Below, piece after piece: positions 9,057 through 60,227 of a DNA stretch of 64,000 bases; within the stretch, counting starts at the first letter, position 1, and each line of letters starts with the position of its first letter. This DNA is from an uncultured delta proteobacterium (GTDB lineage Bacteria; Desulfobacterota; Desulfobacteria; Desulfobacterales; SG8-13), in assembly GCA_963848135.1 (NCBI GenBank), contig CAWKCK010000002.1, forward strand, positions 509,684 through 573,683. Direction: 5' to 3'. Made by a program: the position numbers and the translations under genes. The notes under the pieces were generated by a model. That model did not search any database. It worked only from the letters and a program-made list of their open reading frames with translations, and had not been told where the DNA came from.

Positions 9057-10418
9057 TCATTCATTCGTCGGGATATCTTTCACGACTGGATTAGGACTTT
9101 CTTTCAATAAATTCATCGGCAGAGCGCTTTTAAGATGCAGATCACGCTGCGGAAATGCAAATACGATCCCGGTTTCATGAAAGCTGTCCCACACCTTCAA
9201 GAGGACCGCATTCTTGACATTGGTAATTCCATCTTGGGGATCGTTGATCCAAAAGCGCAACTCCAGATTGACAGTGCTGTCACCGAATTCCTTTACAACG
9301 CATTTCGGATCCGGGCTTTTCAAAACACGGTCAATGCTCAAGGCGGCTGAGACAGCAAAAGTGAGCGCCCTGCTTAAATCAGATTCATAGGAAATCCCGA
9401 GCGGGATCGTAAGGCGTACAAGGTTATCGCTGAAAGATAAATTTTCTATTTTTTGCGTCACAAAGATCTCATTAGGAATGAGCTCTAATGTTCCGTTTCG
9501 CGTGGCCACCTCAACGTATATTAAGCCGATTCGAACGATCCATCCGTATTGAGAGCCAAAAAACTTTTTCTCCAAACCAATCACATCGCCCTTGCGGATA
9601 GGTTTGGCTATGAGCAGCATAATCCCGCTTACCAGATTGGATCCGATTTTCTGCAGCCCGATGCCGACGGCAAAGCCGATCGCCCCTCCCGTGACAACGA
9701 TTCCTGCCAGATGGACCCCGGCCGCTTTCAAAGAGATCAAAATCACTATAACCACTGTTGCAGCCTTGACCACCCTTTGGATCAACGTTCGATCCGAGTA
9801 AGTCAGTTGGGTGGAAGTGGCCAACCTGTGGGCGATAAAGCGGTTGACCGCGTTCCCTAACGCCCACAGCAGAATGAAAGTAAAGAGCGCTTCGATTATA
9901 CCCCAAATAGAGATACGCAATGACCCTAACTGGATCGTCATACTGCCAAGCAAGTCAACGGTCGGTTCCCACAATTTGAATATCTGCAGAGATATAATGA
10001 TCAGGCAAATCGCGTAGATAGTACGTGTCCAGAATGTACTCTTTATGTAAAAATAGGCGAAGCGGATGACCAACAGGGCCCCTATAAAATTGAGGCTCAT
10101 TTGTAAAAGGTCGGCCTGCGTAGAGAAATTTTTGAAAAGAACATGGCAGAACCAAACAAGCAACAGCCAAAGAATATACTTGAGTATAATTGCGAAATGG
10201 GCCGGGCTCAATACAAACCGAACATGGGCCTTAACTTTCTCGATATCTTTTTCAAAGTGTTGCCGAATCTTTTCTGCAAAGATCCATGAAACCAGATAAG
10301 CAGCGCCAATGGCCCCGATCTGATAAACACCCGTCAGATTAAAAAGATTCTCACCGAACCATTGAGAAAGGGACGAAAAGTAGTTCAAAACGTCACCTGA
10401 TAAAATCGAGTTTGCCAT
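9057..10418 (-). CDS. mechanosensitive ion channel family protein (MscS-like, multi-TM N-terminal extension)
   Basis: 453 aa. Several N-terminal TM helices, then the MscS core (GSNLVSGIMLLIAKPIRKGDVI, beta-domain, C-terminal alpha/beta). Confidence 0.85.
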   Translation of the reverse strand: MANSILSGDVLNYFSSLSQWFGENLFNLTGVYQIGAIGAAYLVSWIFAEKIRQHFEKDIEKVKAHVRFVLSPAHFAIILKYILWLLLVWFCHVLFKNFSTQADLLQMSLNFIGALLVIRFAYFYIKSTFWTRTIYAICLIIISLQIFKLWEPTVDLLGSMTIQLGSLRISIWGIIEALFTFILLWALGNAVNRFIAHRLATSTQLTYSDRTLIQRVVKAATVVIVILISLKAAGVHLAGIVVTGGAIGFAVGIGLQKIGSNLVSGIMLLIAKPIRKGDVIGLEKKFFGSQYGWIVRIGLIYVEVATRNGTLELIPNEIFVTQKIENLSFSDNLVRLTIPLGISYESDLSRALTFAVSAALSIDRVLKSPDPKCVVKEFGDSTVNLELRFWINDPQDGITNVKNAVLLKVWDSFHETGIVFAFPQRDLHLKSALPMNLLKESPNPVVKDIPTNE

Positions 10419-11036: not shown

Positions 11037-12113
11037 CTACTTCAGCCAGAGTTCAAATAATTTATAACCAACCGACAAAATAACGGCACCGATAAAAAGG
11101 CCCAGAAATCCGAAAGCAATAAACCCTCCGATGGCCCCGAGAAAAATGACCGTCATGGGCACCGGGGCTCCCTTACCCAACAGGACCGCTTTCAAAGGCC
11201 CGTCCGCAATGGTCACCAACACGAGCCAGACAGTGAGAATGACGGCTGTTAGGGTGCTCATCTCCGAAAATGCATAGATGATGATGGGAACGACGACCAA
11301 ACCGATACTAATTTGGATCATAGCCAGAAATAGACATATGAATGCCCACAGTCCGGCATGGGGAACTCCGGCCACAGCGAACCCCAATCCTGCCAGCAGG
11401 GCCTGTATGAGAGCAACACCCAATATTCCTTTGACCACGCTGCGAACCGTTTTTACCGTAATATCAATAAATTCATCCCCGCGGTCTCCGACCAGACGCC
11501 GAAACAGGCTCTTGGTCATCTCTACACCTTTTGGGGCTGAAATCAGGAGGATACCGGCAATAATGATCGAGACGGCAAATATCAATAGGTCTTTGGCGAT
11601 ATTGATGGCTGTTTTCAACAGCCATTTTCCAAGTGCGACCAACTGCGGCTTTAATTTCACTAAAGTCGGTTCGAGGTTGGCAGAAGCCTTTTGCCACACA
11701 TTTTTTACCGACTCACCGATTACGGGCCAATTACCAACCTCTTCCGGCGGAGGCGGTAATTTCAGTTCACCGGACTCAAGTTTTACAGATAGATCGTAAA
11801 CGCTATTTCCACTGGAAACGGCCAGATAGACACCTGGTAAAATAATGATCAGAAGGGCGCAAAGCGTTATGACGGCACCGGCCAACTTACGGCGATCTCC
11901 CAGCTTGGTGTTGAGCTTCTCGTACACGGGATATGTTGCCACGGCGATAATGATTCCCCAGATGATCATAGAGATAAAGGGCCTGAGTATTTGAAAGCAC
12001 CCGGCAAGAACCGCGGCCAGGACACCGAGTCTGATGAAGATATCGACAGGCCTATTTTGGGGTAATACGTCTCTTGCGATCGAACTGGTTTTTTCCATAA
12101 TTCTACGCCCCAA
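11037..12113 (-). CDS. AI-2E family transporter (PerM/UPF0118)
   Basis: 358 aa polytopic membrane protein with typical AI-2E layout and C-terminal motif PLKAVLLGKG..VPMTVIFLGAIGG. Confidence 0.85.
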   Translation of the reverse strand: MGRRIMEKTSSIARDVLPQNRPVDIFIRLGVLAAVLAGCFQILRPFISMIIWGIIIAVATYPVYEKLNTKLGDRRKLAGAVITLCALLIIILPGVYLAVSSGNSVYDLSVKLESGELKLPPPPEEVGNWPVIGESVKNVWQKASANLEPTLVKLKPQLVALGKWLLKTAINIAKDLLIFAVSIIIAGILLISAPKGVEMTKSLFRRLVGDRGDEFIDITVKTVRSVVKGILGVALIQALLAGLGFAVAGVPHAGLWAFICLFLAMIQISIGLVVVPIIIYAFSEMSTLTAVILTVWLVLVTIADGPLKAVLLGKGAPVPMTVIFLGAIGGFIAFGFLGLFIGAVILSVGYKLFELWLK

Positions 12114-12682: not shown

Positions 12683-14683
12683 TTACCTTCTGGCCTCTTC
12701 TATGGTAACACCCTCGGGCAGAATCCCCTGGGCGCGCGATAACTCGTGCAACGCGATATTATAGTCCGTGATCGCACGATACATACTGCGGCTCGTTAAC
12801 GCATACAGATCCTGAGCACGCAGAAGTTCCAGGTTGCTCGTCTGGCCAATATCGAATCGGGCGAATTCTCCTTCCACCACTTTTTCGGCTGCTTCCCGCG
12901 CCAATCGGGTGGCTTCGATTTCGCCAATGGTGGTTGCTAAACGCTGAAATACTTGTTTTACGTCCAGTCTGATATCATCCTCGAGGCGTTTCACCTGTGC
13001 ATCGGCCTGTAAGCGCTCAAGCTTTTTCCTCCGGTATTGGGCATTGACCGACCGGTTGCCGATCGCCCACGTAAAATTGACACCGACCTCCCAAATATCG
13101 TCCTGGTTCAGTGAGACATCGTCTACCGCCTCACCAAAATCTTGTCCATAACCCGTCAGACCGTAACGCCCGAAAGCGTCGAGCTTCGGAAGACGCAGGT
13201 GCGCGGCCAGCGCTTCATCAGCCTCAGAAATCCTGAACTCCTGCTTGGCTTTCTGAATCTCCGGACGGTACTTGAGAGCGGTTTCAATGGCTTCCATTTC
13301 GTCCAGGTTAATCGGCGCTGTCTGCGGTGGTTCAATGGGGATGACCTCATAGTCCGAATTGATTCGCAACTGATTCCAATTCAAGAGTAGTTTTAGCCGA
13401 TCCATAGCCACCTGAAATTCCTCCTGAGATCGTAACAGGTTGCTGCGGCGCACTTCGACATTGCTGCGTGCGCGTGCGACATCCAACTGTTGTGTGATGC
13501 CCCTGGCAAGACGCTCGGATTCACGGCGATGGACCTCTTCGGCCATCTCGAGGTTCTGCCGGTTGACCGCAATCAGCTCTCTGAACTGATAGAGTTTCCA
13601 GTAGACCTGGGCAACCTTGATCGCGACCTCGATGACTTTCTGACGAAAATCCTCATTAGAAATACTCTCCTGGTAATTGGCGATTTTGATGGCAGTCTTT
13701 TCTTTTTTTGCACCCAAATTATTCAATAGCGGTTGCCGTACTTCGAGGGTTGGAGAAAAAACGTGTTTGTAAACCCGATCGAATTCAGCATTGTTCAGAT
13801 CGCCATATCGAGTTTCAAGATAGGCTGACACACTTCCCCCTGTCGCAAACGGTTTTCTGATGCCGGTCCTGGTGTTCCCCCGATCTTCGGTAACTATATC
13901 AACCACGCTGGATTCAAGGTTCGGATCGCGGCGAAGTGTCATGTCAGAGAACAGCAGCGGATCGTATACCGCTTGGGCGTCTTTGACATCTTCCTGCGCT
14001 TGTTGCGGTCCGTAGGCAACAACACCGATTTCCCGGTTCCCTTCCAGGCTGTAGCGGATGGCATCGATAAGGGACAGCTGGACGGGTGTCATTTTTGTCA
14101 CCGCACCCTTGAACGACTCGGGTCGGGATCCGGAATTCGGCGCTTGTTTCATAGCGGCAATGGGTGGAGATTCTGCTGGCCTCACCGGGGAATCTTCTGA
14201 AACCTGACCGGATTCGGGGATTTCTACCAGTGCCCTCTTTTCTCCTGTCTTCAGATCAGCAGTAAAAATATAATCCCCATTTTCGCTCAATTTCTTGAGC
14301 ATGTATTCATCGACAACATCCTTCTGCACCAGGTGCGCAGCGGCTTGGCGGGCCTCTTCCCTATTCGCGTAGTTACCGATATAGACGCGATACCATTTTC
14401 CCTTCCCATTTATATCCTCACGCCGGCAAAACGGGTCGCACCCCTTATCTCTAAGACGTGAGAAACCCTTTTCGACTTCTGGAAGCGTTTTATAGGCGGC
14501 CACCTGGATAGTAAACCGCTCTCCCATCGGCTGTGACTGGCCATCGCCGATATCACCCACGATGCCGGCATTTGACACGAGGTGATCGGCCTCGGCATTC
14601 ACAACGCAAACATTGCCCAAGAGAATGAGAACAGTAAATAGGCCCGATATGAGATTTTTATGCATGCCCAGCATGTAATTCAT
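12683..14683 (-). CDS. TolC-family outer-membrane factor with N-terminal SPOR domain
   Basis: I place the start at MNYMLGMHKNLISGLFTVLILLGNVCVVNAEA (ATG 14683, 10 nt after the upstream stop); the track ORF start 14878 would overlap the SecA-like gene. SPOR-like FTIQVAAYKTLPEVEKGFSRLRDKG...WYRVYIGNYANREEARQAA. The rest is two OEP-type coiled-coil/beta repeats. Confidence 0.85.
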   Translation of the reverse strand: MNYMLGMHKNLISGLFTVLILLGNVCVVNAEADHLVSNAGIVGDIGDGQSQPMGERFTIQVAAYKTLPEVEKGFSRLRDKGCDPFCRREDINGKGKWYRVYIGNYANREEARQAAAHLVQKDVVDEYMLKKLSENGDYIFTADLKTGEKRALVEIPESGQVSEDSPVRPAESPPIAAMKQAPNSGSRPESFKGAVTKMTPVQLSLIDAIRYSLEGNREIGVVAYGPQQAQEDVKDAQAVYDPLLFSDMTLRRDPNLESSVVDIVTEDRGNTRTGIRKPFATGGSVSAYLETRYGDLNNAEFDRVYKHVFSPTLEVRQPLLNNLGAKKEKTAIKIANYQESISNEDFRQKVIEVAIKVAQVYWKLYQFRELIAVNRQNLEMAEEVHRRESERLARGITQQLDVARARSNVEVRRSNLLRSQEEFQVAMDRLKLLLNWNQLRINSDYEVIPIEPPQTAPINLDEMEAIETALKYRPEIQKAKQEFRISEADEALAAHLRLPKLDAFGRYGLTGYGQDFGEAVDDVSLNQDDIWEVGVNFTWAIGNRSVNAQYRRKKLERLQADAQVKRLEDDIRLDVKQVFQRLATTIGEIEATRLAREAAEKVVEGEFARFDIGQTSNLELLRAQDLYALTSRSMYRAITDYNIALHELSRAQGILPEGVTIEEARR

Positions 14684-14693
14684 TTTTCCCCAT

Positions 14694-16682
14694 CTAAATG
14701 TCATTGGCTGCAAATCCAAGGTGTTGGTCAAGCCAGTTGTCTGCGGAGAGAACATCCCTTCGCATTCGGAAGGAAATACGTTCGGCGCGGCACTGTAGTG
14801 CGTCAGCCAAACGCCGCCATAAAATCGATGATATCTCCCTGTTATTATAACAAAACAATCGCCTAAGGGCAAATGCAATCATACGGGTATGCTTCTGAAT
14901 GAGTTCGTCTTCCAGGCTGATGAAAGCCTGTGCGCTCCCGGGATCGCCCTGTCGGGAACAGCGGCCGAAGAGCTGACGGTCAATGCGCCGGGCATCGAAA
15001 CGTTCGGTGGCGATGACATGCAAGCCCCCCAATTCCGCTACCCCAGAACCCAGACGGATGTCCGTTCCACGACCGGCCATGTTCGTGGAAACGGTTATGC
15101 GGCCCTTTTTACCGGCGCCGGCAATAACCTGGGCTTCAGACGATTGCCGCATAGCATTCAGCAGCCGGTGCGGCAAACCGGTGGCTTTCAGCTGGTCACT
15201 CAAGTATTCACTTTCCCGAATGCCGCCCGTGCCAACCAGAATCGGGCGCCCGATCCGGTGAACGGCGTCAATCTCTGCGACCACAGCCTTCCACTTGTCC
15301 GCAGCCGTCGTGAACACACGATCCGGCTTGACTATCCGGCGGCAGGGACGATGGGTCGGGATAGGAATCACCGGCAATCGATAGATCCCCCACAATTCCG
15401 TCTGTGCTTCGGCCACCGTACCCGACATTCCGGACAGTTTCCGATAGAGGCGGAAAAATCGCTGGAAGCTGATTCTGGCGTATGTTTCTTTGGGAAGGTT
15501 TATTTCGAGCCCTTCCTTGGCTTCGACCGCCTGGTGAAGCCCATCGCGCCAGGTTCGGTCGGGCATGAGTCTTCCGGTGAACTCGTCGACAATGACCACC
15601 TTGTCCTCATCGACGACGTACTGCTTGTCCCGGATAAAGAACGCCACGGCGGAAAGGGCTTGTGAAACCAATTCTTCCCGGCGCCGCCGGCCGGCCCACA
15701 ATCCCCCAAGGGGTGCTGCCATCTCTGCCAGGCGTTGTCTGCCGGCCGGAGTCAGATGGACGTCGCGATAGCGGCGGTCAATCCGAAAATCGGTCGCAGG
15801 ATCCAGTGCACCGGCTAACAGCGCTGCCTGTTTGTAGGCTTGCATGTGTTCTTGATTGGGCGCATCTCCCGAAATCAGCAACGGGGTCACCGCATCATCG
15901 ATGAACACGGAATCAGCCTCGTCGACAATAGCGCACTCCAGCCCGCGCAGGACCAACCGGTCAACTCGAGCCCCGCGGCTGCCAGTCATCTTTGCGAGTA
16001 GCACCGACGGCAACCCCTGAGAGTGGCCAAGAAGAAGGCGGTCACGCAGAAAATCAGCGGCAACCTCTTTGTTGGTGCAGTAGGTAATGTGCGCATTATA
16101 GGCCTGCTTGCGTTCAGCCGGTTCCATTCCCTGGGTAATACACCCCACGGTCAGACCACAAAACCGATAGATGGCCATCATTAATTCGGCGTCCCGCTCG
16201 GCGAGGTAATCATTGGCCGTAATGACGTGACAACCGCGCCCCCGCCAGCCGGCAAGCACCGCCGGCATCGTGGCCGCCAGGGTCTTTCCTTCCCCGGTGG
16301 CCATCTCCGCGACGCAACCGGCTTCCAGGGCCAGCGCAGCAGCGATCTGCTCCCGATAAGGCCGCAGTCCCACTGTCCTCGCGGCAACTTCGCAAACGAT
16401 TGCAAAGGCCAAATAGCCATCTTCCGCGGTATTCCGGCCCAGGAGGAATCGATCGCGCAAGGGATCCATAAGATCACGCAGCTTGCGGTCTGAGGCGTGA
16501 AGAATATCCTTCTCCATTTCTATAATGTTGTCTGCTTGGCGAAGAAAACGATCCGGACTGCGCCTTAACCGACCGGCAAAGCCGGCAGCCTGATGCCACA
16601 GGGCATCCAGCCCGCGGGGCGGTTCGTCACTTTCCAGGCGCTGCGAAAGCATGCGCCATGTGGTGCTGGCCACACTCTCCAT
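14694..16682 (-). CDS. SecA-family ATPase, truncated accessory type (motor domains + PPXD, no C-terminal wing/CTL)
   Basis: 662 aa. MATGEGKTLAA (Walker A; SecA has MRTGEGKTL), ITYCTNKEVAADFLRDRL, IVDEADSVFIDDAVTPLLISG (DEAD box), WRDGLHQAVEAKEGLEI, TNMAGRGTDI, RRIDRQLFGRCSRQGDPGS. The protein ends about 70 aa after NBD2. Confidence 0.9.
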   Translation of the reverse strand: MESVASTTWRMLSQRLESDEPPRGLDALWHQAAGFAGRLRRSPDRFLRQADNIIEMEKDILHASDRKLRDLMDPLRDRFLLGRNTAEDGYLAFAIVCEVAARTVGLRPYREQIAAALALEAGCVAEMATGEGKTLAATMPAVLAGWRGRGCHVITANDYLAERDAELMMAIYRFCGLTVGCITQGMEPAERKQAYNAHITYCTNKEVAADFLRDRLLLGHSQGLPSVLLAKMTGSRGARVDRLVLRGLECAIVDEADSVFIDDAVTPLLISGDAPNQEHMQAYKQAALLAGALDPATDFRIDRRYRDVHLTPAGRQRLAEMAAPLGGLWAGRRRREELVSQALSAVAFFIRDKQYVVDEDKVVIVDEFTGRLMPDRTWRDGLHQAVEAKEGLEINLPKETYARISFQRFFRLYRKLSGMSGTVAEAQTELWGIYRLPVIPIPTHRPCRRIVKPDRVFTTAADKWKAVVAEIDAVHRIGRPILVGTGGIRESEYLSDQLKATGLPHRLLNAMRQSSEAQVIAGAGKKGRITVSTNMAGRGTDIRLGSGVAELGGLHVIATERFDARRIDRQLFGRCSRQGDPGSAQAFISLEDELIQKHTRMIAFALRRLFCYNNREISSILWRRLADALQCRAERISFRMRRDVLSADNWLDQHLGFAANDI

Positions 16683-16683
16683 C

Positions 16684-18861
16684 TTAGACCTCGAATCTCT
16701 TCTGGAAAAGCTGAAGCAGAGAACGCCAACCTTGCAAGAAAAGCGGTTTGGGAGATGTCTCGAACCGCAAGGCCATGGTTTGTCCGGGACGCAGTGTCAT
16801 TGATTCAGGAATCGACGGTAACACCAGTATCTCAAAAAAAGGTTCCGCCGCCTGTCTTCCGGTGGGATCTTCCAGGTCGGTACGTGTGGATCCACCGGCG
16901 GCATAGCCCAGCGCGGCGGATGGCAGCTTTTCCTGTCCGGCCGGAATAATCGTTTCGATTCGGCCGGCAAGCGCGATGTCCGGTCGGCCTTTGACCCTTA
17001 TATCGACTTGCGATTTAGCGTCCGCGAATAACCTCGAGGCGACTTTCTGGCTGGCAATAGCCCGAATACGCAATGCTTCCAGATTGGCGACCACGCCGAT
17101 ACGGTGGCCCTGTTCCAGATACATGGCCTTGATACGGTCGATGTCCGGTGCCACCCAGATCCCGGCTATGGGTGATCTAGGCGCCAAATTATCTATTTTA
17201 AGCTGTGTCCGCTCAATCTGTTCTTCCAGGGCCGTAATCTTTTCATCCATGATCTGGGCGGCAGCGGCTTCTTTGGTCTGGGCAGACTGGCGATTGACCT
17301 GAAGGCGGCGGTATTCGGCGAGAAGTTGATCCCGTTGCGCTTCCAATTCAGGACTGAATGCCCGGATCAATTCGGGTCCGTCCGATCCGATTCTGGCACC
17401 TGAATCCAGAAATTGTCGCACAAAACCGGCTGTCTTCACGTGTATGACAGCATAGTCACGCGGTTCCACCACCCCTTCGACCCGGCAGCGATCCGGCATA
17501 CGAACAAGCCCGAAAACAATGACAAGAAAACAAACAGCCAAGGCGGAGGTGCAAATCGCGCGTTCTCTGCACCGGACGAGTTCGCTGCTCGTCGCCAGGT
17601 AGTGCAGGAACTTCCCCAGTGGTAACACCACCCATCGGACGACCAGGATCGCCACCAGCAGCATGCCTATCGAAAAAAACATGCCCATTAGATAAAAAGC
17701 AATCGCTGCAACAATGACCACGCGACAGACCGTCGAAGCGATGGCGTAGAAGATCAACCACCCTTTTTCGCCGTCAGTGTGACTCGAATCGGAGGCCTTT
17801 TGCAGTCCCCACAGGTATCGTTTGATCAGGTAGCGGACGTACAGTTTCGATCGTGATTCGAGGTTGGGAATCTCTAACACATCCAAAAGGATGTAATACG
17901 CATCGTATCGAAGAAAAGGGTTTCCGTTGAACATCAGGGAAGAAATGCTGGCAATAAACATGACGTTATAGGCGATGGCATGAACCGTGGTCCCCTCGGC
18001 CGTGTGAACCCAAAGTACAGCGGCAATGGCGGCGATGACCAACTCGGCCAACATGCCGCCAGCGCCGACCACAATCCGTTGCCATTTATCTCGCAGCGCC
18101 CAGGCGCTTGAAGCATCCACATACGGCAATGGCGTGAAGACCAGGAAAGTCACGCCCATCTGGTGCACCTCGCCCCCGGCACCGGATTGTTGCCCGAAAT
18201 GTTTACACGAAAAGGCATGGCCCATCTCGTGGAACAATTTCACCAGGACAAGCGCCGCGTATAGCAGAGGCAGGTTCTCTGGGTTTAATATCCCCGAGGC
18301 TTTGGCTGTCAGCGCATCGACATGGCCACCGACAGACCACAGCCCAATGGCCATGATCCCCGTCCACAGGATCGCACCGTACACAGAAAACGCTTTCCCA
18401 ACCACACCAACCCACCGGTTCAGAAACTGGTCCGGATCCCACAACGGTATGCGGACGAAAAGCAGATTTCCAACCGCACCCTTCACCTCGCGCCAAACGC
18501 GTTTTTGGTGCCGCTTGAAGAGGGTTTCCGCGTCGGGGGCGATATTGCCATGCAATAGATTCGAGGAATGCAGCTGACACAGCAGCTGGATCACCTCGCC
18601 CTGGGTCGGTGCGGCATCGCCAAATTGATCCATGCAGATCTGCCACACCTGACTGACGGTGCGTCGTCCATCGAGCATTGAAGCAAAATGGTAAGCGGCG
18701 GCGTTCAGACGAAAGTAGCGGTTATTGACCGGATCCTGCAGAACGTACCATCTGACACCTCGGTAATGCTGTCGGCTGACATTAACCGTGGCCAGCAGTC
18801 TCGGCATGAGTTCCGACACGCGGTACCAGGATTCGCTGAATGTGGGTCGGTCAATCGTCAC
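16684..18861 (-). CDS. fusion protein: PqqD-like N-terminal domain + polytopic M50 (site-2-protease-like) metallopeptidase + C-terminal HlyD/MFP domain
   Basis: 725 aa, GTG start with GGGGG 6 nt upstream. HExxH as FHEMGHAF inside a TM helix; second S2P-type motif NGNPFLRYDAYY. N-terminal 90 aa resemble PqqD/RRE (YFRLNAAAYHFASMLDGRRTVSQVW). C-terminal coiled coil plus barrel-sandwich (RSPIAGIW). Confidence 0.8.
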   Translation of the reverse strand: MTIDRPTFSESWYRVSELMPRLLATVNVSRQHYRGVRWYVLQDPVNNRYFRLNAAAYHFASMLDGRRTVSQVWQICMDQFGDAAPTQGEVIQLLCQLHSSNLLHGNIAPDAETLFKRHQKRVWREVKGAVGNLLFVRIPLWDPDQFLNRWVGVVGKAFSVYGAILWTGIMAIGLWSVGGHVDALTAKASGILNPENLPLLYAALVLVKLFHEMGHAFSCKHFGQQSGAGGEVHQMGVTFLVFTPLPYVDASSAWALRDKWQRIVVGAGGMLAELVIAAIAAVLWVHTAEGTTVHAIAYNVMFIASISSLMFNGNPFLRYDAYYILLDVLEIPNLESRSKLYVRYLIKRYLWGLQKASDSSHTDGEKGWLIFYAIASTVCRVVIVAAIAFYLMGMFFSIGMLLVAILVVRWVVLPLGKFLHYLATSSELVRCRERAICTSALAVCFLVIVFGLVRMPDRCRVEGVVEPRDYAVIHVKTAGFVRQFLDSGARIGSDGPELIRAFSPELEAQRDQLLAEYRRLQVNRQSAQTKEAAAAQIMDEKITALEEQIERTQLKIDNLAPRSPIAGIWVAPDIDRIKAMYLEQGHRIGVVANLEALRIRAIASQKVASRLFADAKSQVDIRVKGRPDIALAGRIETIIPAGQEKLPSAALGYAAGGSTRTDLEDPTGRQAAEPFFEILVLPSIPESMTLRPGQTMALRFETSPKPLFLQGWRSLLQLFQKRFEV

Positions 18862-18873
18862 GTCGGCCCCCGA

Positions 18874-20772
18874 TTACACCCATAATTTCATTCGTAACCA
18901 GTTGACAAGGCGGTGGGAGGCGATCCAGAGGTAGGATTTTTTCCCGGCCGATATCCGGGCTTCGCCTTCCATGCCGGGCCGCATCCATTCCAGGTTTTCA
19001 AGAATACGGGCGCGCACCCTGAACACATTTTGGTTGTTCACCACCTCGGCGATGGGATTGATCCGCTCGATAACGAACCGAATTTTCTGATCGGGGTGGC
19101 CAACGGATGCCAACTCTCCCTCTTGCCCGGTGGCGACGTTTGCAATCGACGACTCCGGGACGTACAGCTCGGCCCTTAAGGAATCGATGGCGGCAATCTC
19201 AAACAGGACCTTACCCGTCTCGACTGGCGCACCGATCTGCTGCTTCAAATCCTCAGAAACCACCCAGCCGGTGATCGGCGATACCAGGGTTGCCTGTTCG
19301 ATTTTCTTTTCGATTAAACGGATCTCCGCCGCAACCTTGTCGCTCTGCGCCTGTGCGATCTGGGCTTCAGCCGTCTTCCGATCGCGCATCGATGCGGCCA
19401 TCTGCTTTTGATAACCCAACTGTTCGGCTTTCAGGGCGGCCAGTTTCAACCGGAGTTCAGAGGTCTCTAACGTCCCCAAAATAGCCTTACCGCCCTCAAC
19501 GCGATCTCCCGGCTCCACCGACACACTTTTGGTGAAGGTATCGAATGGCGCAACGACCACCTGTTGATTTTTGGCCTGCAACGCAAAAGAGGTTTTAATG
19601 CGGTAATCCCCTTTCGCTGTTGTAAAAAACACTGCCATCAAAAAGACCAGTACGGCGCCCAACTTTACCCAGGTGTGCTCATGCCCCAGCAGCACCCCCA
19701 CCTGCTGTCGGGCCCGAGAGGCCATGCGCGCGCCGAACCACCGATCACTTCGACTCAGTTCCAATAGCCGGGGTGCACAGAGATCACCGATCAACCTGAG
19801 GGTTTCTATTTCCGCCAATCGGTTAAAGGGCTGCTCGGGCGAACGCTCTAATGTCATCACTGCCGTTACGTTCCCGTCTTCGCGTATCGGCAGGCTGAGT
19901 ATACTGGAGGGTCCATGACATGCCGATAACTTCGCGGATCCACGATCGGCATACATCGCAGCGTCATCTTTGGGATGGATCACCTCCACATCCTGGTCCA
20001 GGCATTCCTCCATCGTGGCTTCAATCGCCTGAACCACATCCATTTCGCGGCCGAATGAATCCGTATGGCTCATCGCCCGAACCCGCACGCTGCGGCCATC
20101 GAGAAGGCCAAGACTGACCCGGCTGCAACCCAGTCGGGTTGAAATCTCGTTGCACAACGCCATGGCCGCACTCAAAAACCGCTTTGACTTGTTGACCGTA
20201 TCCAGTACTTCAAGGACCCGCCGCAGACGATTCATGGCCTCATGGTGCATTTTCGTTGTCAGGCGCATCTCATGGTGATCCAGCAGAAGAGCCGTCGTTT
20301 CCAGGCGGGCATGACTCAGTAGTAGCTGATAATGGGAACTTGCCTTGATTCGGAAGGCCGCGGCAGCACGAAGGGCGCCGTCGTTTTGAATCGGAATGAC
20401 AACCAGGTAATTCTGATATTTATCACTCCCTTCCGATGCGGAATTTTCTTTTACAATGACCGTTTGGCCACTTTTCATGACCCTTCGAAACGGTTTTTCG
20501 GCTTTACTGATCCATTTCAGGGAATTGCCGTTATTATTCGGGGTTGGGTATGCGGCCAGGGCCTCTATGCGATTGGCTTCCCCAAGGCGTAGCACCACCC
20601 CGGCATCACATTTGGCCAGGTGGCACTGGGTGGAGAGTAACTCGGATAGGAATCGGTCCGGCGGCCCGTCGTATGAGAACAATTCAGATAGAGCCTTTGC
20701 GTTGAAAGGCCCTGCCGGTCTTTGATTGTCCACAGATCTGCCCGCCGTGGATCCAGCCATAAATAATTCCAT
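18874..20772 (-). CDS. GAF-GAF-TM-HlyD membrane fusion protein
   Basis: 632 aa. Two cytoplasmic GAF-like segments, one TM helix (WVKLGAVLVFLMAVFFTTA), then an HlyD-type lipoyl/coiled-coil/beta-barrel region (LVSPITGWV). Confidence 0.8.
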   Translation of the reverse strand: MELFMAGSTAGRSVDNQRPAGPFNAKALSELFSYDGPPDRFLSELLSTQCHLAKCDAGVVLRLGEANRIEALAAYPTPNNNGNSLKWISKAEKPFRRVMKSGQTVIVKENSASEGSDKYQNYLVVIPIQNDGALRAAAAFRIKASSHYQLLLSHARLETTALLLDHHEMRLTTKMHHEAMNRLRRVLEVLDTVNKSKRFLSAAMALCNEISTRLGCSRVSLGLLDGRSVRVRAMSHTDSFGREMDVVQAIEATMEECLDQDVEVIHPKDDAAMYADRGSAKLSACHGPSSILSLPIREDGNVTAVMTLERSPEQPFNRLAEIETLRLIGDLCAPRLLELSRSDRWFGARMASRARQQVGVLLGHEHTWVKLGAVLVFLMAVFFTTAKGDYRIKTSFALQAKNQQVVVAPFDTFTKSVSVEPGDRVEGGKAILGTLETSELRLKLAALKAEQLGYQKQMAASMRDRKTAEAQIAQAQSDKVAAEIRLIEKKIEQATLVSPITGWVVSEDLKQQIGAPVETGKVLFEIAAIDSLRAELYVPESSIANVATGQEGELASVGHPDQKIRFVIERINPIAEVVNNQNVFRVRARILENLEWMRPGMEGEARISAGKKSYLWIASHRLVNWLRMKLWV

Positions 20773-20859
20773 TTTACCGTCAGAGTCTCATACCGCTAGA
20801 CAAATTGCTTTTTCCTCCCTCAAAGGGCAATTGATGCGTCCCGCTCGGCAGATGGAGGC

Positions 20860-21717
20860 TCACTCAGACTTCAATTGTCCGAGCTCTTTATTTTCCATTT
20901 CAGGAGAGAAGCCGACGGCAACACGTTCACCTGCCGGTCGCTTCAGAGGGTTGGGCACTTCGATGCGAACCCGCAGAGTATCGCTTGCGGCATCCGCAAC
21001 GGCCGAGATGTTGATGATCCGAGCATTCGGCGATGCATCAACGGGGTTTCCGGGAAAGGTAACCCAGGCATTCTGCCCCATTTCCAATTTGCCGGCTTGT
21101 TCCATCGGGACCGGCACATCGATCCAGAGAGGATCGTTTTGAACCAGTCGGATGACAGGTCCAAGTGAACCAATGGATTCCCCCACCTCGACGGTAACAT
21201 CCTCAACACGCCCAGCAATGGGGGCAACAAGGCGCATTTGCGCCAACTGGCTCTGGGCGTGATCGTATCGGCGCCGATACTGTTCTTGCTCCAAAACTGC
21301 CGACTTCAACGAAAGCTCTGCAATTCGGACGTTTAATTTCAAATGCTCAACTTCCCAGTCACTCGCTGCTCCTTTGGCCTGGGCCTGCGCGACCTTTTTC
21401 AAATCGATCCTTTTCTGTGCCAATTCCGCCTTGGCGGCAAGGATTTTGGTGCGGTCTTCCGAAAGCATTTTTAACTGCTGACTCTGGATTCTTTCGGGTT
21501 CATCGTAGAGGCGAACGAGCAGCTGATCCTTTTCGATAATGTGGCCTTCCTTGACCAGGACATCGGATACCCTGCCGGGCACCACGAAGGACAGGGTGAT
21601 ATCGGCATTGGGTGTCGTAATGCCCTGTAACGTCTCAGCGCCGGCAGAAACGTGGGCACACATCAGCGCACACAAAAGCCCTGCCCTAAAAATAGCGGAA
21701 CCAAATCTGGAAATCAT
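20860..21717 (-). CDS. periplasmic adaptor (MFP / HlyD_D23-like) with cleavable signal peptide
   Basis: 285 aa. Signal peptide MISRFGSAIFRAGLLCALMCAHVSAGA. Biotinyl-lipoyl-like hairpin (VAPIAGRVEDV) and a short coiled coil. Confidence 0.8.
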   Translation of the reverse strand: MISRFGSAIFRAGLLCALMCAHVSAGAETLQGITTPNADITLSFVVPGRVSDVLVKEGHIIEKDQLLVRLYDEPERIQSQQLKMLSEDRTKILAAKAELAQKRIDLKKVAQAQAKGAASDWEVEHLKLNVRIAELSLKSAVLEQEQYRRRYDHAQSQLAQMRLVAPIAGRVEDVTVEVGESIGSLGPVIRLVQNDPLWIDVPVPMEQAGKLEMGQNAWVTFPGNPVDASPNARIINISAVADAASDTLRVRIEVPNPLKRPAGERVAVGFSPEMENKELGQLKSE

Positions 21718-21805
21718 GGCCTTACCTTTCTTTCCAAAAAATGATGATCTCTGTTCGGTGTGATATTGAAATTCGGGTTAATAAAAAACAGTCCTCTTGG
21801 ACTTA

Positions 21806-21821
21806 AGCAATAAAAATGCCA
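21806..21821 (-). promoter_or_regulatory. sigma-54-type promoter candidate for the secretion operon
   Basis: The minus strand reads TGGCAT-TTTTA-TTGCT, against consensus TGGCAC-N5-TTGCW. It lies about 90 nt upstream of the MFP ATG (21717). Pattern match only. Confidence 0.4.
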
Positions 21822-21933
21822 ATTACTGGCATCAAAATTTTTGTAATTTATTCAATGGGTTTTCTTGTTTGAAACGGAAATTATTTCAGATATGCCAGTA
21901 ATTTGACTGTATGACCGTCAAATTTCACAGTAT

Positions 21934-21979
21934 AAAATCCCCCTAACCCCCTTTAGAGAATGGGGGCCGGGGGGATTTT
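21934..21979. terminator. GC-rich hairpin, bidirectional terminator candidate
   Basis: AAAATCCCCCTAACCCCC ... GGGGGCCGGGGGGATTTT with T-runs on both strands. It separates the upstream c-di-GMP gene from the secretion-operon promoter region. Confidence 0.45.
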
Positions 21980-22615
21980 CTTACCTGTATTTTTCACGAA
22001 TCGCATTTGTTCATTAGCAAGGCGCACACCCTATCGAAGATGAATCAGATGTGCGATCCTGCAAAGCGAGGGCATTCAGGGGCATAGCTGAACTTTGATA
22101 CCGCAAGTCCCTGACGACTCACCGAAGTACATATAAACAGGCGAGAGTCCAGCTATGCTGGGAAACGCAGCAAATGGGTGAATGCGGCCCGCCCAAAGGG
22201 TAAATATTTTTGGTTCTTCTCCGATTTAGTTGTGTAAATTGATGCGAAGATCATGCATGGATCATAGCGTGTCTAAATTGGCCACCCGCTCACTTCGCTC
22301 GCTCGACAGACGCTGACGGCCACAGACTTTTGCCTCCGCGACCTGCGGAGGCAAAACAAGCAGTCGCTGCACGAGGCCATCTGCTTTTCTGCCTGAAAGG
22401 CATGCATCTTTTACCCGGGCAAGTCGCCCGGGTAAAAAGGGTCTGTCTGCGTTATGTCAGCACTTGCGTCTTCTGAAACAATCGTTATATTCACCGGCCG
22501 ACAGATACCAGCCCAAAGATGGGCCCCCGAAGCGGCCCGCCGGGTCTCGGACATGGACGTCTCCTTTTGGCCCGAGGGTGAATTCGTTTCATTTCAACCT
22601 CTCGTTGAAAAGATG

Positions 22616-24418
22616 TCACTCGCTCTTCGGGGTCGAGGAAGAAAACATCTCGGAAATTTTCTCCGGCGGTACGGGTGGGCTGAACAGATAACCCTGGTAA
22701 AGGTCGCACCCCTCTTCTTGCAGGAACTTCAATTGGGGCTTTGTCTCCACACCTTCGGCAACCGTGCGTAGATTCATATTCCGAGACAGATAAATTAAAG
22801 AAGAAACCAGGGCACGGCTCTTGGTGTCCTCGAACAAACTCACAAAAAAGGAGCGATCGATTTTCAGCTCATCCAATGGCAGTCTTCTGAGATAACTCAA
22901 AGAAGAATAGCCGGTGCCGAAATCGTCAATAGACAATTGGAGACCAAGGCCTTTCAAACGATTCATTATTTCAATTTTGCTTTCGATATCCTCCAGCAAC
23001 ATGCTTTCGGTGACTTCAAGTGTCAGCAATTCGGGAAATATACCGCTGTTATGGACGATTTGTTTGAAAGTAGCCAAAATTTCCTGGTTCTGAAATTGTG
23101 CGGTAGACAAATTCACCGCCATACTGATCGGGGGCATACCGGTCTGCTGCCATTCAGACAGCTGGTTACAGGCCTGAGCCAAAACCCATTCCCCGATTGG
23201 GACCATCAGCCCGGTTTCCTCGGCGATGGGAATAAATTTGCTCGGTGGGATTACGCCATGTTCAGGGGTGTTCCATCGCAGCAATGCTTCCACTCCGGTA
23301 ATGGCATTCGTTTTAACATCCAACTTGGGCTGGTAGTACAGTAACAACTCATCCCGGTCGATCGCTTTGCGGAGCCTGGCTTCAAGATTGAGGCGCTTCT
23401 GGTACTGGGTGTTTATTTGTCGGGAGGAAAATTGAAAAGAGTCACCACCATGATTCTTGGCATAATCTTTGGCACTCGAGGCCAGCTGCAACATTGTCAC
23501 GCTGTCGACATCTTCTGTGGGGTACGTCGCAATACCGATGCTGGCAGTCAGGTAGATTTCGTTGTTATCCACAAGCAGCATCGATCGAATCGATTCCAAA
23601 ATACATTCGGCAACCAGCGCGGCATCGCTCTCGTTAGAAAGCCGATGCAGAAGCAGGGTAAAAACACCACCGTCTAAATGAAACAGATTAACAGGGACAT
23701 ACTCATCGATTTCATGATGCCCGAGCAAATCGAGGCCCTTAACGACATCCTTGAAGCGCGCGGTCAACTGTCGCAGAATTTCGTCACCCGCAAAAAGCCC
23801 CAGAGTATCACTGACCTTGTCAAATTGGTCCAACTCGATACTCAACAATGCCAGGTTATCTCTATTCTGTTTAACCGACTTCAAGCCCCATTCCAGACAT
23901 TCCATAAAAAGGTGCCTGTTGGGCAGTTTGGTCAGCGGGTCGTAAAAAGCGAGGCGATCCATATACGCCTTGGCGGCCAGGGTATTGCGAACGCGCAGCC
24001 GGAGTTCACTCGGATCAACCGGCTTGCCAAGGAAATCAGTGGCACCAAGGTCCAGTGCACGCAATTTATCTTTATTGTCTGATGATGCCGTCAATATGAT
24101 GACAGGCAAGTGTTTGAGTTTAGGATGCTCCCGCACTTGTTGTAGTACATCGAATCCCGACAGCTTCGGCATCATCAGATCGAGCAGAAGAAGATCGGGA
24201 CGCTGTTGCTCGAGCGTGGCCATCGCTTGGCTGGAATCTTCAATCAAGACGAAGTTGCTGTACCCCGCCTCCTCCAGAAATGCCTGCACGACTTCCATGT
24301 TGATGGGTTCGTCATCAACGATAACAATGTTTGCATTGAGCATTTGCTCAAACTCCCCCTGAAGTTCTGAGGTTTCATTCCACTCCGTCATATTCTTTTC
24401 TGCATTCGCTGTCTGCAT
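22616..24418 (-). CDS. response regulator with degenerate GGDEF and intact EAL domain (c-di-GMP phosphodiesterase type)
   Basis: 600 aa. REC ([10 protein letters not shown]...[13 protein letters not shown]). The GGDEF position reads DGGVF. EAL motifs are intact ([27 protein letters not shown]). Confidence 0.9.
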
Positions 24419-27596: not shown

Positions 27597-30500
27597 ACCC
27601 TATCTTTCTCCTGATCGGTAACTGATGATTCTTCTGCCGATTTCTTTTTCGGTTCAGTTTTTCGTGGCGCCTGGTCCAATATGGTTTCCAGGGATTCATC
27701 ATCGTCGGGGTGGTCGCCATCTCTTTTTCTTGCCAGTACCGGCAGCGGATCCAAGATCTGCCAAGCCGGAATAGAGGACAGCAGCGTACTCAGCAACATA
27801 CCGCCCCGAATAAGCCAGACAACATAACCCACGGAAAGACCAACCGAGGATACAATCGCAGATCCGAGATACACTTTGTTTATCTGATTGTCATTGGCGA
27901 TCTCTTCTTTGATATCATCCAGAGAATTAACCATATTGTGATAGGCGCGCGCCGTCATCGTATTATTAAAGCTGATCTGTCGTGCCGCCCGATAGAGGCC
28001 GGGGTCTGCAGCTGTATCTTTCTGAGGCCCCCCCGCCCGGTTAGATAACCGCGCCGCATTGTCATTGACGTCTGCAACCGCCGCTCGATTCTGAGTAAAG
28101 CTGCGGAAGACGTTAATCAGGAACGGTGTCCGCGCAGGCGATGATCCGCGTTGTCGCGGGGCGCTTTCTTCGGAAGGACCCGGGTTCACCGGTGGTGCTT
28201 CCACGGCTTCCGAGATATTTTCCACTGTAGCCTCGTCCGGCTCTACGGCGGGCTCGCTGACCTCAGAATCAGTCGCTGTCTCCGGTTCTGCCGGGTCACT
28301 ACTGTCTGTAGGAAGGGAACTTTCCGTCGGGAGCGTTGGCGGTGGTACCACGGTGATCACGGAGACGACCGCGCCGCTTTGCTGGGCGACGGAAATGCCG
28401 TCTTCGGAGGATTCTACCGTAAAGCTGCCATTAATGATGGACGTGCCTGTCGGGGTGAAACGGACACCCACCTGACCCTGGGCAAAGGAGATATAGTCGC
28501 CGTTGTGGATCGGGGTGACACCGTCTGACAGATACAGGGTGCCGTTCGTGATGTTGGAAATCCGGAAGTAAGTCACCTCGGCGCCATCGTCGGGATTGCG
28601 GTCAATGACGATCAGGCCCGACTGAACCGTTGCCGGGGTTATAATTCCACTCACCTGCGGGGTGTCACCCACCGGGGTTGCCGTAATGATCTTTATCCCC
28701 GAAATGGGGGCAGCCACGCCATCGTCCACGCTAGCATCGATTGTAAAGCTGTTGTCATAGTTTATCGATGGCGTGAAAACCACTCCTGCCAACAGGGCAT
28801 TCACATCGGCAATGGGTCCGCTGGCCGTCCAAGTGCCTCCGGAAAAGTTTGCGGTCACCCCCCCTGAGGTACCGGTGCTCAGGCTGCCGGCTGCCGGATC
28901 GGAAAGAGTCAGGGTTACGGTGACATTGGCGCTGTCTATATCAGCGATGACGATGTCTGAAAGATCGAGGGGAATGTCTTCGGTATAGGTCTCTGCCGCA
29001 TTCAAGTTGGCGGCGGTCGGGGCAACATTGAGATGCGCCACCGGCGCCGTGCCCGCGCTGGTCAGGCTTTCAAGAGTTCCCCTATCATCAGTATAATTAG
29101 CGGTTACAGAGATCACTTTACCTTCATCAACCAGTACTGTGGTATAGGTGCTCGAGGTGGCTCCACTGATAATTACTCCATCATGAAACCACTGGTAAGT
29201 GATCGCACCAGTCGCCCCGTCAGGATCGTTCACGATCGCTGTCAATGTATCACCCACGGTAGGCGTTAAATTGTCGATAGCAACAGTCCCCACATCGTTG
29301 GTGTTAGCCACCGTGATATCAAACTGCTCCTCCACCCAGGCGTTGCTCGCATCGGTCGCCCGCACCGTAATCGTCACCGTGCCCACATCGGCGTTTGCCG
29401 GCATGCCGCTAAAGGTTCGCGTGCCTGCGGTAAACGCGAGCCAACTTGGCAGACCCAAGGCCGTATACGTTAAGCTGTCGCCCGCATCCACATCATTGAA
29501 GGTGTTGGCCGCAAACTGGAAACTAAATGGCGTATCCTCTGTGGCGCTTTGATCGGGGATCACATTGGCCACCGCCGGCGCATCGTTCACCGGCGTGATA
29601 TCCAAAGTCGCGCTGCCGGCCACCGTGTCGGTCCCGTCGGTAATCGTGTAGGTAAAGCTCACTGAGGTGTCGTCATCGGCCGCCGGTGTGTAGTCCCAGG
29701 TACCGTTGCCGTTATCCACCAAGGCACCGTTTCCGACACTGATCGCAAGACCGGTCGCTGTCAGACTGTCACCCTCGATATCATTGGCATTGACTAAAAG
29801 ATCGGCCTGGGTGATCAACCGCGCGCCGCTGTCTTCTCCGATCGCTGCCAGAATTACCGGGCTGGTCGTGGGCGCATCGTTCACCGGCGTGATATCCAAA
29901 GTCGCGCTGCCGGCCACCGTGTCGGTCGCGTCGGTAATCGTGTAGGTAAAGCTCACTGAGGTGTCGTCATCGGCCGCCGGTGTGTAGTCCCAGGTACCGT
30001 TGCCGTTATCCACCAAGGCACCGTTTCCGACACTGATCGCAAGACCGGTCGCTGTCAGACTGTCACCCTCGATATCATTGGCATTGACTAAAAGATCGGC
30101 CTGGGTGATCAACCGCGCGCCGCTGTCCTCACCGATCGCTGCCAGAGTTACCGGGCTGGTCGTGGGCGCATCGTTCACCGGCGTGATATCCAAAGTCGCG
30201 CTGCCGGCCACCGTGTCGGTCCCGTCGGTAATCGTGTAGGTAAAGCTCACTGAGGTGTCGTCATCGGCCGCCGGTGTGTAGTCCCAGGTACCGTTGCCGT
30301 TATCCACCAAGGCACCGTTTCCGACACTGATCGCAAGACCGGTCGCTGTCAGACTGTCACCCTCGATATCATTGGCATTGACTAAAAGATCGGCCTGGGT
30401 GATCAACCGCGCGCCGCTGTCTTCTCCGATCGCTGCCAGAATTACCGGGCTGGTCGTGGGCGCATCGTTCACCGGCGTGATATCCAAAGTCGCGCTGCCG

Positions 30501-60206: not shown

Positions 60207-60227
60207 CTGAGCCCTTCTCTTTTATAT

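Follow-up and report, generated by a model that had tools for sequence, protein, structure and literature searches.

A conserved cassette of SecA-like, HlyD and TolC-like proteins as a candidate one-step exporter of adjacent LEPRxLL giants in an uncultured desulfobacterium

How might giant proteins without a Sec signal leave a cell when the operon beside them encodes adaptors, an outer-membrane channel, a membrane protease and a SecA-like ATPase, and no recognisable pump? This question is raised by a 64,000-nucleotide (nt) stretch of contig CAWKCK010000002.1 (hereafter the window) from an uncultured delta proteobacterium of the Desulfobacterales, in which a five-gene operon follows two giant proteins carrying an N-terminal LEPRxLL leader. 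We propose that the operon is a dedicated one-step exporter of these adjacent giants, a reading to which we give somewhat better than even odds. The five genes are co-directional and lie on the minus strand, a point missing from an earlier account made from the letters alone (the sequence-only reading); the intergenic gaps given there, 87, 12, 1 and 10 nt, agree exactly with the open reading frame (ORF) coordinates. Coordinates, strands and products, with lengths in amino acids (aa), are as follows.

20860–21717, minus strand: MFP1, a small periplasmic adaptor of 285 aa with an N-terminal hydrophobic signal or anchor.
18874–20772, minus strand: GAF-TM-HlyD protein of 632 aa, with a cytoplasmic GAF sensor, one transmembrane (TM) helix and a periplasmic adaptor.
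16684–18861, minus strand: RRE(PqqD)-M50-HlyD fusion of 725 aa with a GTG start, the signature protein of the cassette (RRE, RiPP recognition element; RiPP, ribosomally synthesised and post-translationally modified peptide).
14694–16682, minus strand: wingless SecA-like ATPase of 662 aa, a "secondary SecA_DEAD protein".
12683–14683, minus strand: SPOR-TolC outer-membrane factor (OMF), 666 aa from the ATG that gives the 10-nt gap.

Searches against Pfam and NCBIfam confirmed the HlyD, PqqD, M50, SecA, SPOR and OEP domains of the sequence-only reading, while of its two GAF domains one passes Pfam. MFP1 matches HlyD_D23 (E 4.5e-17) and HlyD_3, and scores above the cut-off of TIGR01730 RND_mfp (107 bits). 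In the GAF-HlyD protein, GAF/GAF_2 covers aa 204–333 and HlyD_3/HlyD_D23 aa 397–601. The OMF matches OEP in two stretches (E 8e-45) and SPOR (E 1e-13). Signal-peptide character was approximated by Kyte-Doolittle hydropathy, which reached 2.0 at the N-terminus of MFP1 and a signal-peptide-like 2.76 at that of the OMF. The same searches found no RND, MFS or ABC pump in the five genes, and the sole ABC ATPase of the window is that of an Mla system (60228–60986), about 40 kb from the operon, as had been claimed.

It is essentially certain that the five genes are one copy of a cassette described in silico by Kamneva, Poudel and Ward (PLoS One 2015; PMC4452313), because their domain set is identical to that of the published locus. 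That study reported "secondary SecA_DEAD domain proteins" that had lost the wing/scaffold domain, encoded together with GAF-HlyD, Peptidase_M50-HlyD, HlyD/Biotin_lipoyl and sometimes OEP proteins and without an ABC transporter, in Planctomycetes, Verrucomicrobia, Proteobacteria, one Nitrospirae species and one Chlorobi species, missing parts being encoded elsewhere in the genome. In that proposal ATP hydrolysis falls to the SecA-like protein and the M50 protein may form the pore, the same hypothesis that we adopt; no substrate was named, and the biological role was called "completely unknown". The SecA-like proteins of such loci were placed in a clade of their own, shared by PVC bacteria, Proteobacteria, Nitrospirae and Chlorobi and apart from the SecA of the host. 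The cassette itself is therefore not categorically new, contrary to the earlier view that its composition had no known precedent. The text of the 2015 paper mentions no substrate candidates, giants, adhesins, cadherin, PqqD or LEPRxLL motif, and we found no link between the 2015 cassette and LEPRxLL proteins in the searchable literature. The assignment of cargo and leader thus appears to be undescribed so far, and the cargo link, the RRE, the DUF3467 and SapC accessories, the c-di-GMP genes and the peptidoglycan-binding OMF described below all go beyond the text of that paper.

To follow the cassette across genomes we scanned one genome per species, which gave 562 confirmed loci, of which 80 were kept; five more from contig look-ups brought the total to 85 (L numbers below designate loci). 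Genes were taken from our own ORF calling and labelled with phmmer, denominators being the loci with room for the gene concerned; counts out of 48 refer to loci with at least 5 kb on both sides. The 85 loci span Planctomycetota, Verrucomicrobiota, Lentisphaeria, Desulfobacterota, Nitrospirota, Alpha-, Beta- and Gammaproteobacteria, Spirochaetota, Fibrobacter and Flavobacteriales, and the spread beyond the 2015 paper comprises Desulfobacterota, Spirochaetota, Fibrobacterota, Lentisphaeria, Bacteroidota and many cultured Alphaproteobacteria. GAF-HlyD, M50-HlyD and the SecA-like protein form a near-invariant triad: the first lies immediately upstream of the fusion in 71 of 76 loci, the last immediately downstream in 70 of 75. 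MFP1 has a homologue in 41/48 loci, and an OEP gene belongs to the cluster in at least 16/48. ABC ATPase matches occur in four of the 48, none adjacent to the cassette, and no canonical ABC or RND partner was found in the orthologous clusters. Nor did any small ORF, or any modifying enzyme of the radical SAM or YcaO sort, recur in the 85 loci; no small RiPP-type precursor genes were found, and all-against-all ORF clustering revealed no further family conserved across most loci. As far as comparative genomics allows, these data bear out the claim of a type-I-like trans-envelope exporter whose gene set is conserved across phyla without an ABC, RND or MFS partner, with the SecA-like protein as its only motor and the M50 protein as its only polytopic inner-membrane part.

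The candidate cargo consists of two proteins, whose features are these.

41043–56033, minus strand: giant 1, candidate cargo, 4996 aa, with leader, DUF4347, He_PIG/Big_9/cadherin repeats, beta-helix, VCBS and a putative C-terminal membrane segment.
55923–55961, minus strand: leader motif of giant 1 (aa 25–37), IRFEALEPRLLLS, preceded by a K/R-rich stretch; 22.4 bits against NF012209.
41109–41204, minus strand: C-terminal element of giant 1, GYVLW..RG..LL..PMW..DPLPVL, in a hydrophobic segment (Kyte-Doolittle 1.99 over 19 residues).
27593–37855, minus strand: giant 2, candidate cargo, 3420 aa, with leader, DUF4347, choice-of-anchor Q, CBM96/DNRLRE, 11–12 cadherin-like "tandem-95" repeats and a putative C-terminal membrane segment.
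37739–37777, minus strand: leader motif of giant 2 (aa 27–39), ICFEPLEPRLLLS; 23.9 bits against NF012209.
27734–27829, minus strand: C-terminal element of giant 2, GYVVW..RG..LL..PAW..DPLPVL.

Both giants begin with a K/R-rich stretch followed by I(R/C)FE(A/P)LEPRLLLSGSWGAGA, and both exceed the 17-bit cut-off of the NCBIfam LEPR-XLL family (NF012209). In the ORF list giant 1 opens with a GTG (56015–56033); its first ATG, at codon 7 (MRKKVERIRNK...), is likely to be the true start, which would make its N-terminus parallel to that of giant 2. The two proteins hold none and one GGxGxD motif, so that neither has an RTX block, and their first 70 residues are weakly hydrophobic (Kyte-Doolittle 0.65 and 0.86, compared with 2.0 for the adaptor and 2.8 for the OMF), consistently with the earlier claim that they lack both RTX and Sec signals.

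The link between giants and cassette recurs well beyond the window. Of the 85 loci, 44 include giants of 900 aa or more, which often run off the edge with the N-terminus out of view. Some 18 cassette-adjacent ORFs carry phi-x-phi-E-x-LEPR-phi-LLS(A/G)(D/S), behind a basic stretch, within their first 15–60 residues, and all of these are giants or giant fragments cut by a locus end or a frameshift, from Planctomycetota, Verrucomicrobiota, Nitrospirota, Desulfobacterota, Beta- and Gammaproteobacteria; among ORFs of 150–899 aa, a looser form of the motif was found in 2 of 2173. In a Phycisphaerae locus (L002), for example, a protein of 2352 aa lies directly after the SecA-like gene and begins ...LLEQLEPRLMLSGS. 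Furthermore, a tblastn search of PLSDB returned full-length relatives on plasmids and chromids of cultured Alphaproteobacteria, and in each of the six regions that we opened a giant of 4,033–12,918 aa ends just 5' of the cassette on the same strand. All six have the basic stretch and the motif, which was recognised in three of them by the PGAP LEPR-XLL label and in three by translation.

Methylosinus sp. C49: giant of 8,847 aa, motif IIFDTLEPRVLLNAD.
Alisedimentitalea scapharcae: giant of 8,148 aa, VVEQLEPRLLLAADF in frame just upstream of the annotated start.
Pontibrevibacter nitratireducens: giant of 10,603 aa, named "LEPR-XLL domain-containing protein" by PGAP.
Pseudosulfitobacter sp. DSM 107133: giant of 12,918 aa, PGAP label LEPR-XLL.
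Mesorhizobium ciceri R30: giant of 10,518 aa, motif VHFEALEPRLLLSADF.
Thalassospira marina: giant of 4,033 aa, PGAP label LEPR-XLL.

In A. scapharcae (L096, NZ_CP123586.1, position 183224) the start of this "calcium-binding protein" was called too far downstream, cutting off the basic stretch and the leader. In a weak reverse test, look-ups of DUF4347 proteins showed an MFP1-like gene directly upstream in two of three contigs, where the entries were fragments of at most 540 aa and the 10-kb flanks too short to reach a cassette.

Motif giants thus recur beside the cassette in Planctomycetota, Verrucomicrobiota, Nitrospirota, Desulfobacterota and Alpha-, Beta- and Gammaproteobacteria, in line with the suggestion of the sequence-only reading that the LEPR-XLL giants are candidate cargo. 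We consider it likely that the adjacent LEPRxLL giants are the substrates of the cassette, because same-strand adjacency repeats across phyla, often with overlapping or nearly abutting genes, and because an N-terminal peptide motif fits a peptide-recognition domain that is conserved on the machine.

The motif has a history of its own. In its extended form it matches a planctomycete "export signal", RRLxxExLExRxLLA, proposed in 2004 as quoted in PMC8567305. Proteomics of Tuwongella immobilis detected 20 of 52 motif-bearing proteins, eight of them in the SDS-soluble fraction only (PMC8567305). Two giants of Chlorobium chlorochromatii, of 36,806 and 20,647 aa, have an N-terminal LEPRxLL domain of 24 aa, are exported to the partner cell in "Chlorochromatium aggregatum" and "lack known signals"; their neighbours are sapC and a tolC-like gene, and a secA gained by horizontal transfer, Cag_1676, is expressed together with them (bioRxiv 10.64898/2026.03.19.712371). 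This secA and the hlyD gene Cag_1507 may belong to a cassette of the kind described here.

The peptide-recognition domain belongs to the fusion protein, which matches PqqD (E 2e-8), HlyD_D23 and, exactly at the cut-off (27.2 bits), Peptidase_M50. Its family comprises 3951 clusters at 50% identity (E<1e-30), with full-length architecture and nearly all of about 715–730 aa. Across 63 sequences with identities as low as 32%, HExxH (H211, E212, H215) and N312-x-N314-P315-x4-D320 show little or no variation, and the protease should therefore be active, as judged from these motifs. In an AlphaFold2 (AF2) model with a predicted local distance difference test (pLDDT) of 87.6, a beta3-alpha3 winged helix of RRE type (aa 27–99) precedes about seven TM helices (aa 160–451), with a re-entrant beta-hairpin after the HExxH helix, and a complete membrane fusion protein (MFP; aa 454–723) whose alpha-hairpin (aa 504–557) has the length of that in MexA. 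Since the number of TM helices is odd, the RRE would be cytoplasmic and the adaptor periplasmic. With the whole model as query, Foldseek returned adaptors alone, the hairpin and barrels of the MFP part matching MacA, MexA and AcrA, and nothing for the membrane part, so that the S2P-like fold of the latter rests on the motifs and the Pfam and NCBIfam matches. The closest named relatives are the RiPP leader peptidases daptide_HExxH (NF041824; E 5e-42, 144 bits against a cut-off of 300) and YydH/LiaK (NF058609; E 6e-10, 39 bits against 225), which likewise combine an N-terminal PqqD-like RRE with a polytopic HExxH membrane protease and conserve the second zinc-ligand motif. The fusion differs from them in staying below the family cut-offs, in carrying a periplasmic adaptor and in having no small precursor or modifying enzyme at hand; the leader-bearing neighbours of the cassette are instead proteins of 1,500 to 13,000 aa.

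The motor candidate matches SecA_DEAD (E 6e-94), SecA_PP_bind and P-loop_SecA and has no Pfam match to SecA_SW, the combination expected from the sequence-only reading; its NCBIfam SecA scores (604 and 601 bits) stay below the equivalog cut-offs (814 and 800). Aligned to Bacillus subtilis SecA, it covers residues 13–605 of 841 at about 40% identity. Its homologues (61–88% identity, nearly all of 652–665 aa) come from metagenome-assembled genomes of Desulfobacterota, Acidobacteriota and Planctomycetes, and Walker A (GEGKT), DEAD and the motif TNMAGRGTDI of the second nucleotide-binding domain (NBD2) are invariant in 35 of them. The AF2 model (pLDDT 75), whose C-terminal end is a single long helix (aa 620–655), superposes on SecA structures with TM-scores of 0.70–0.74 in Foldseek. 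Thus, NBD1, the preprotein clamp (PPXD), NBD2 and the scaffold helix are shared with canonical SecA and all ATPase motifs are intact, whereas the helical wing domain, the two-helix finger and the C-terminal tail, with its linker and zinc site, are absent, and an N-terminal extension of 40 aa and an insert of 20 aa (aa 223–242) are added. In this it resembles the engineered Escherichia coli fragment SecA-N68 (5k9t). Unlike canonical SecA and SecA2, the cassette protein is linked in related loci to adaptors and never to secY or secY2.

Inconsistent NCBI naming of these two proteins hides the cassette. In PGAP annotation the motor candidate goes under "prepilin peptidase" or "DEAD/DEAH box helicase" (P0146–P0148, P0157, P0209; L093 22204–24120; L097 22124–24109; L098 23059–25083). 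The fusion appears as "PqqD family peptide modification chaperone", "site-2 protease family protein", "biotin/lipoyl-binding protein" or "efflux RND transporter periplasmic adaptor subunit", and the JGI label of its family is "putative peptide zinc metalloprotease".

On these grounds we propose the following mechanism, in which each step is inferred, as are the direction in which the chain moves and what forms the pore of the inner membrane. A giant would be synthesised without a Sec signal and with an N-terminus made of a K/R-rich stretch and the motif given above. RREs are known to bind leader peptides as an added beta-strand, and the cytoplasmic PqqD-like RRE of the M50-HlyD protein may bind the giant's leader as RREs bind those of RiPPs. 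The SecA clamp and motor push unfolded chains; the wingless SecA-like ATPase would in the same way grip the unfolded giant and push it N-terminus first, through an inner-membrane passage formed by an oligomer of the roughly seven-TM M50 domains and the TM helices of the GAF-HlyD protein. S2P/M50 enzymes cut within or near the membrane, and the M50 active site would remove the leader. HlyD-type adaptors form hexameric tubes on TolC trimers, and here the three HlyD moieties would build the periplasmic tube, docked on a TolC-like trimer that may be tethered to peptidoglycan through SPOR. In this lineage, the hydrophobic C-terminal segment and acidic tail of the giants would act as a stop-transfer anchor, leaving a cell-attached fibre, and the GAF domain, together with c-di-GMP and two-component genes interleaved with the giants, may gate the process.

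Several observations weigh against this proposal. No giant lies within the DNA available for 41 of the 85 loci, nor within 10 kb of the cassette in L001, which comes from a complete genome. The adjacent SecA-like gene is missing in five of 75 loci (L004, L014, L022, L034 and L049) and also in Thalassospira marina (L100). M50/S2P proteins are, to our knowledge, known as proteases and not as protein-conducting channels. A Nitrospira giant (L048, 2714–7375) has a LEPR leader yet ends in an RTX-like GGxGxD region, and a LEPR-XLL giant of Vibrio VB16 likewise has RTX-type C-terminal repeats (PMC10868602); such repeats would fit the classical C-terminal route through a type I secretion system (T1SS). 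In the same direction, the authors of the Chl. chlorochromatii study prefer C-terminus-first export by a sap-like T1SS (bioRxiv 10.64898/2026.03.19.712371). Finally, in Methylobacterium extorquens AM1, where the cassette genes are META1p2399–2402, most of them were barely expressed in exponential phase (PMC4452313).

The best-placed alternative divides export into two steps: the SecA-like protein would feed the giant to SecYEG, the M50 protein would be a dedicated signal peptidase, and the adaptors and TolC would carry the giant from the periplasm across the outer membrane. Its models are the SecA2-only systems of Gram-positive bacteria and MacAB-TolC with its enterotoxin. Consistently with this view, a complete DEAD motor and preprotein clamp have been kept, the model superposes best on SecY-engaged and peptide-bound SecA (5eul, 6itc and 3jv2; TM-scores 0.73–0.74), no dedicated pore protein is evident in the cassette, and the SecA_DEAD clade was placed next to actinobacterial SecA2 (PMC4452313). 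However, what the protein has lost includes the very finger that inserts into SecY, in addition to the wing; the leader has no Sec-type hydrophobic core and is interrupted by an Asp in most homologues; and none of the 85 loci shows a secY paralogue linked to the cassette. A periplasmic intermediate of 3,000–13,000 residues with no periplasmic energy source is also hard to imagine. We regard the two-step route as unlikely. The window itself holds no secY, and the canonical SecA of the host is located outside it.

A second alternative turns on the C-terminal ends of the giants and on the signalling genes around them, neither of which figured in the sequence-only reading. Both window giants, a giant of L004 and an ORF of L023 (5835–7262) share the element GY(V/L)xW..RG..LL..P.W..DPLPVL within a hydrophobic segment (Kyte-Doolittle 1.7–2.0), with an acidic tail behind it. 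The element resembles a membrane anchor or sorting signal and would fit N-terminus-first export with a stop-transfer anchor; it is lineage-specific and absent from proteobacterial giants. The C-terminal ends of these giants differ by lineage, for two giants from different classes (L042, 1–4707; L046, 2–3745) share the terminus ...LLFEYW(T/I)E... and the Nitrospira giant has the GGxGxD repeats mentioned above. Between the giants and the operon, and between the giants themselves, lie three signalling genes.

22616–24418, minus strand: REC-GGDEF-EAL response regulator of 600 aa, immediately 5' of the operon.
24651–27596, minus strand: hybrid histidine kinase PAS-HisKA-HATPase-REC-Hpt of 981 aa, with a 4-nt overlap between its start and the end of giant 2.
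38551–40992, minus strand: PAS-GGDEF-HD-GYP protein, 813 aa, between the two giants, with a probable role in c-di-GMP control.

The response regulator is kept in L005 and L010, with a remnant in L001; the hybrid kinase is found at the corresponding place in L004, L005 (Desulfosarcina alkanivorans) and L091; and a homologue of the PAS-GGDEF-HD-GYP protein adjoins the cassette in L023. Giants and operon are likewise interleaved with signalling genes in D. alkanivorans (L005), L004, L010 and L091, and this recurrence suggests control by c-di-GMP.

The giants might accordingly be exported by another machine, such as a classical T1SS encoded elsewhere, with the cassette serving to mature, anchor or shed them and the SecA-like protein acting as an unfoldase or extractor. 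One form of this, by analogy with LapG/LapD, would be an S2P-like cut of the leader or of the C-terminal anchor under c-di-GMP control, and we regard it, as we do the general version, as quite unlikely. Such a module would suit the S2P enzymes, which cleave membrane-embedded helices, given the conserved hydrophobic segment in which the window giants end, and it would agree with the RTX repeats of some LEPR-XLL giants, with the interleaved c-di-GMP genes and with the many T1SS operons of Chl. chlorochromatii. It leaves no role, however, for three adaptors and a TolC-like channel that are conserved along with protease and ATPase; the C-terminal anchor occurs in a single lineage, in contrast to the general N-terminal motif; and neither the window nor the genes adjoining the cassette in the 85 loci include a T1SS ABC gene.

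A RiPP or bacteriocin exporter with its leader peptidase, next to which the giants would lie by chance or through co-regulation, is suggested by the leader peptidases related to the fusion and by the JGI family name, but is very improbable, since the NCBIfam scores fall far below their cut-offs, no small ORF or modifying enzyme recurs in the 85 loci and the leader-like motif is found only on giants or giant fragments.

Our preferred reading, one-step export by the cassette, can be set beside known systems. With the classical T1SS of giant adhesins (LapA/LapBCE with LapD/LapG; MpIBP) it shares an adaptor and TolC-like factor, a giant adhesin of Ig/cadherin type that probably stays attached to the cell, and nearby c-di-GMP genes. 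It differs in having no ABC transporter, a SecA-family motor, three adaptors rather than one, and giants whose proposed signal is N-terminal and which lack the C-terminal RTX/secretion signal. Compared with Lap, moreover, the protease is an inner-membrane M50 enzyme and not the periplasmic LapG (Pfam scans of the neighbouring genes found neither a LapG-type protease nor an ABC exporter), and the putative anchor would be C-terminal and in the inner membrane instead of an N-terminal plug in the OMF. A second parallel comes from the giants of Omnitrophota and Actinobacteria, into which wingless SecA_DEAD and preprotein-binding modules are fused and for which self-export was proposed (West-Roberts et al., bioRxiv 10.1101/2023.11.21.568195). 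Common to both are the SecA_DEAD and preprotein-binding domains without wing/scaffold, giant surface proteins and the presence of a normal SecA; there, the module sits inside the giant, near genes for type II/IV-like secretion, whereas here it is a separate protein of 662 aa in an adaptor/TolC cassette.

Some accessory and variable parts of the cassette also deserve mention. An N-terminal peptidoglycan-binding domain is unusual among OMFs; it is SPOR in the window and in L005 (12009–14045), and OmpA in L001 (14358–16304) and L004 (12430–14499). Where the SecA-like gene is missing in L004 and Thalassospira, the fusion gene is followed at once by the OMF or the small adaptor. A DUF3467 protein of about 110 aa, which is not in the window, accompanies 13 of the 85 loci, usually just upstream of GAF-HlyD (for example L001 16482–16817; L093 17726–18046), and four of the six plasmids. 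The idea that it is a SecB-like chaperone was rejected for now, hhalign against E. coli SecB (approximate query sequence) giving a probability of 0.1, and a profile search of PDB sequences returned nothing meaningful. A SapC-family gene, also absent from the window, lies within or beside the cassette in nine loci (L028, L042, L058, L066, L076, L079, L080, L085 and L087) and at two plasmids (L096 958–1755; L098 22245–23066).

On the 5' side of the operon is a non-coding gap of about 900 nt (21718–22615), presumably a promoter or regulatory region. It matches no Rfam family and was rejected as the seat of a small RiPP precursor, holding only short ORFs, none with the leader motif. Promoter and terminator scans of the operon boundaries gave counts not above those of shuffled controls, and a weak hairpin is all that follows the OMF stop codon on the 3' side. 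Other neighbours in the window are an MlaD/MlaF/MlaE operon (59175–62504), an AI-2E family transporter (11037–12113) and an MscS-type channel (9057–10418).

These comparative data join in one testable hypothesis a cassette that was left without a function in 2015 and a planctomycete LExRxLL signal that has been without a machine since 2004. In its general form, to which we give about an even chance, LEPRxLL would be the N-terminal signal of a pathway that has as yet no type number, in which an RRE recruited from RiPP biosynthesis reads the leader, an S2P-like protease-adaptor cuts it and a wingless SecA, in place of an ABC transporter, threads chains between 1,500 and more than 36,000 residues long through adaptor and TolC with the N-terminus leading; the same pathway would also export the giants of Chl. 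chlorochromatii, which are the largest bacterial proteins known, and many planctomycete surface proteins. Cargo and machine are adjacent in cultured and partly tractable hosts, namely Methylobacterium extorquens AM1, Mesorhizobium ciceri, Ensifer adhaerens, Methylosinus and Desulfosarcina alkanivorans, as well as in the roseobacter relatives Pseudosulfitobacter, Alisedimentitalea and Pontibrevibacter. If true, the hypothesis would correct the PGAP misnaming of the motor, would establish a secretion pathway powered by a SecA-family motor outside SecYEG, and would explain how adhesins of 10,000 residues can be moved without an ABC transporter.

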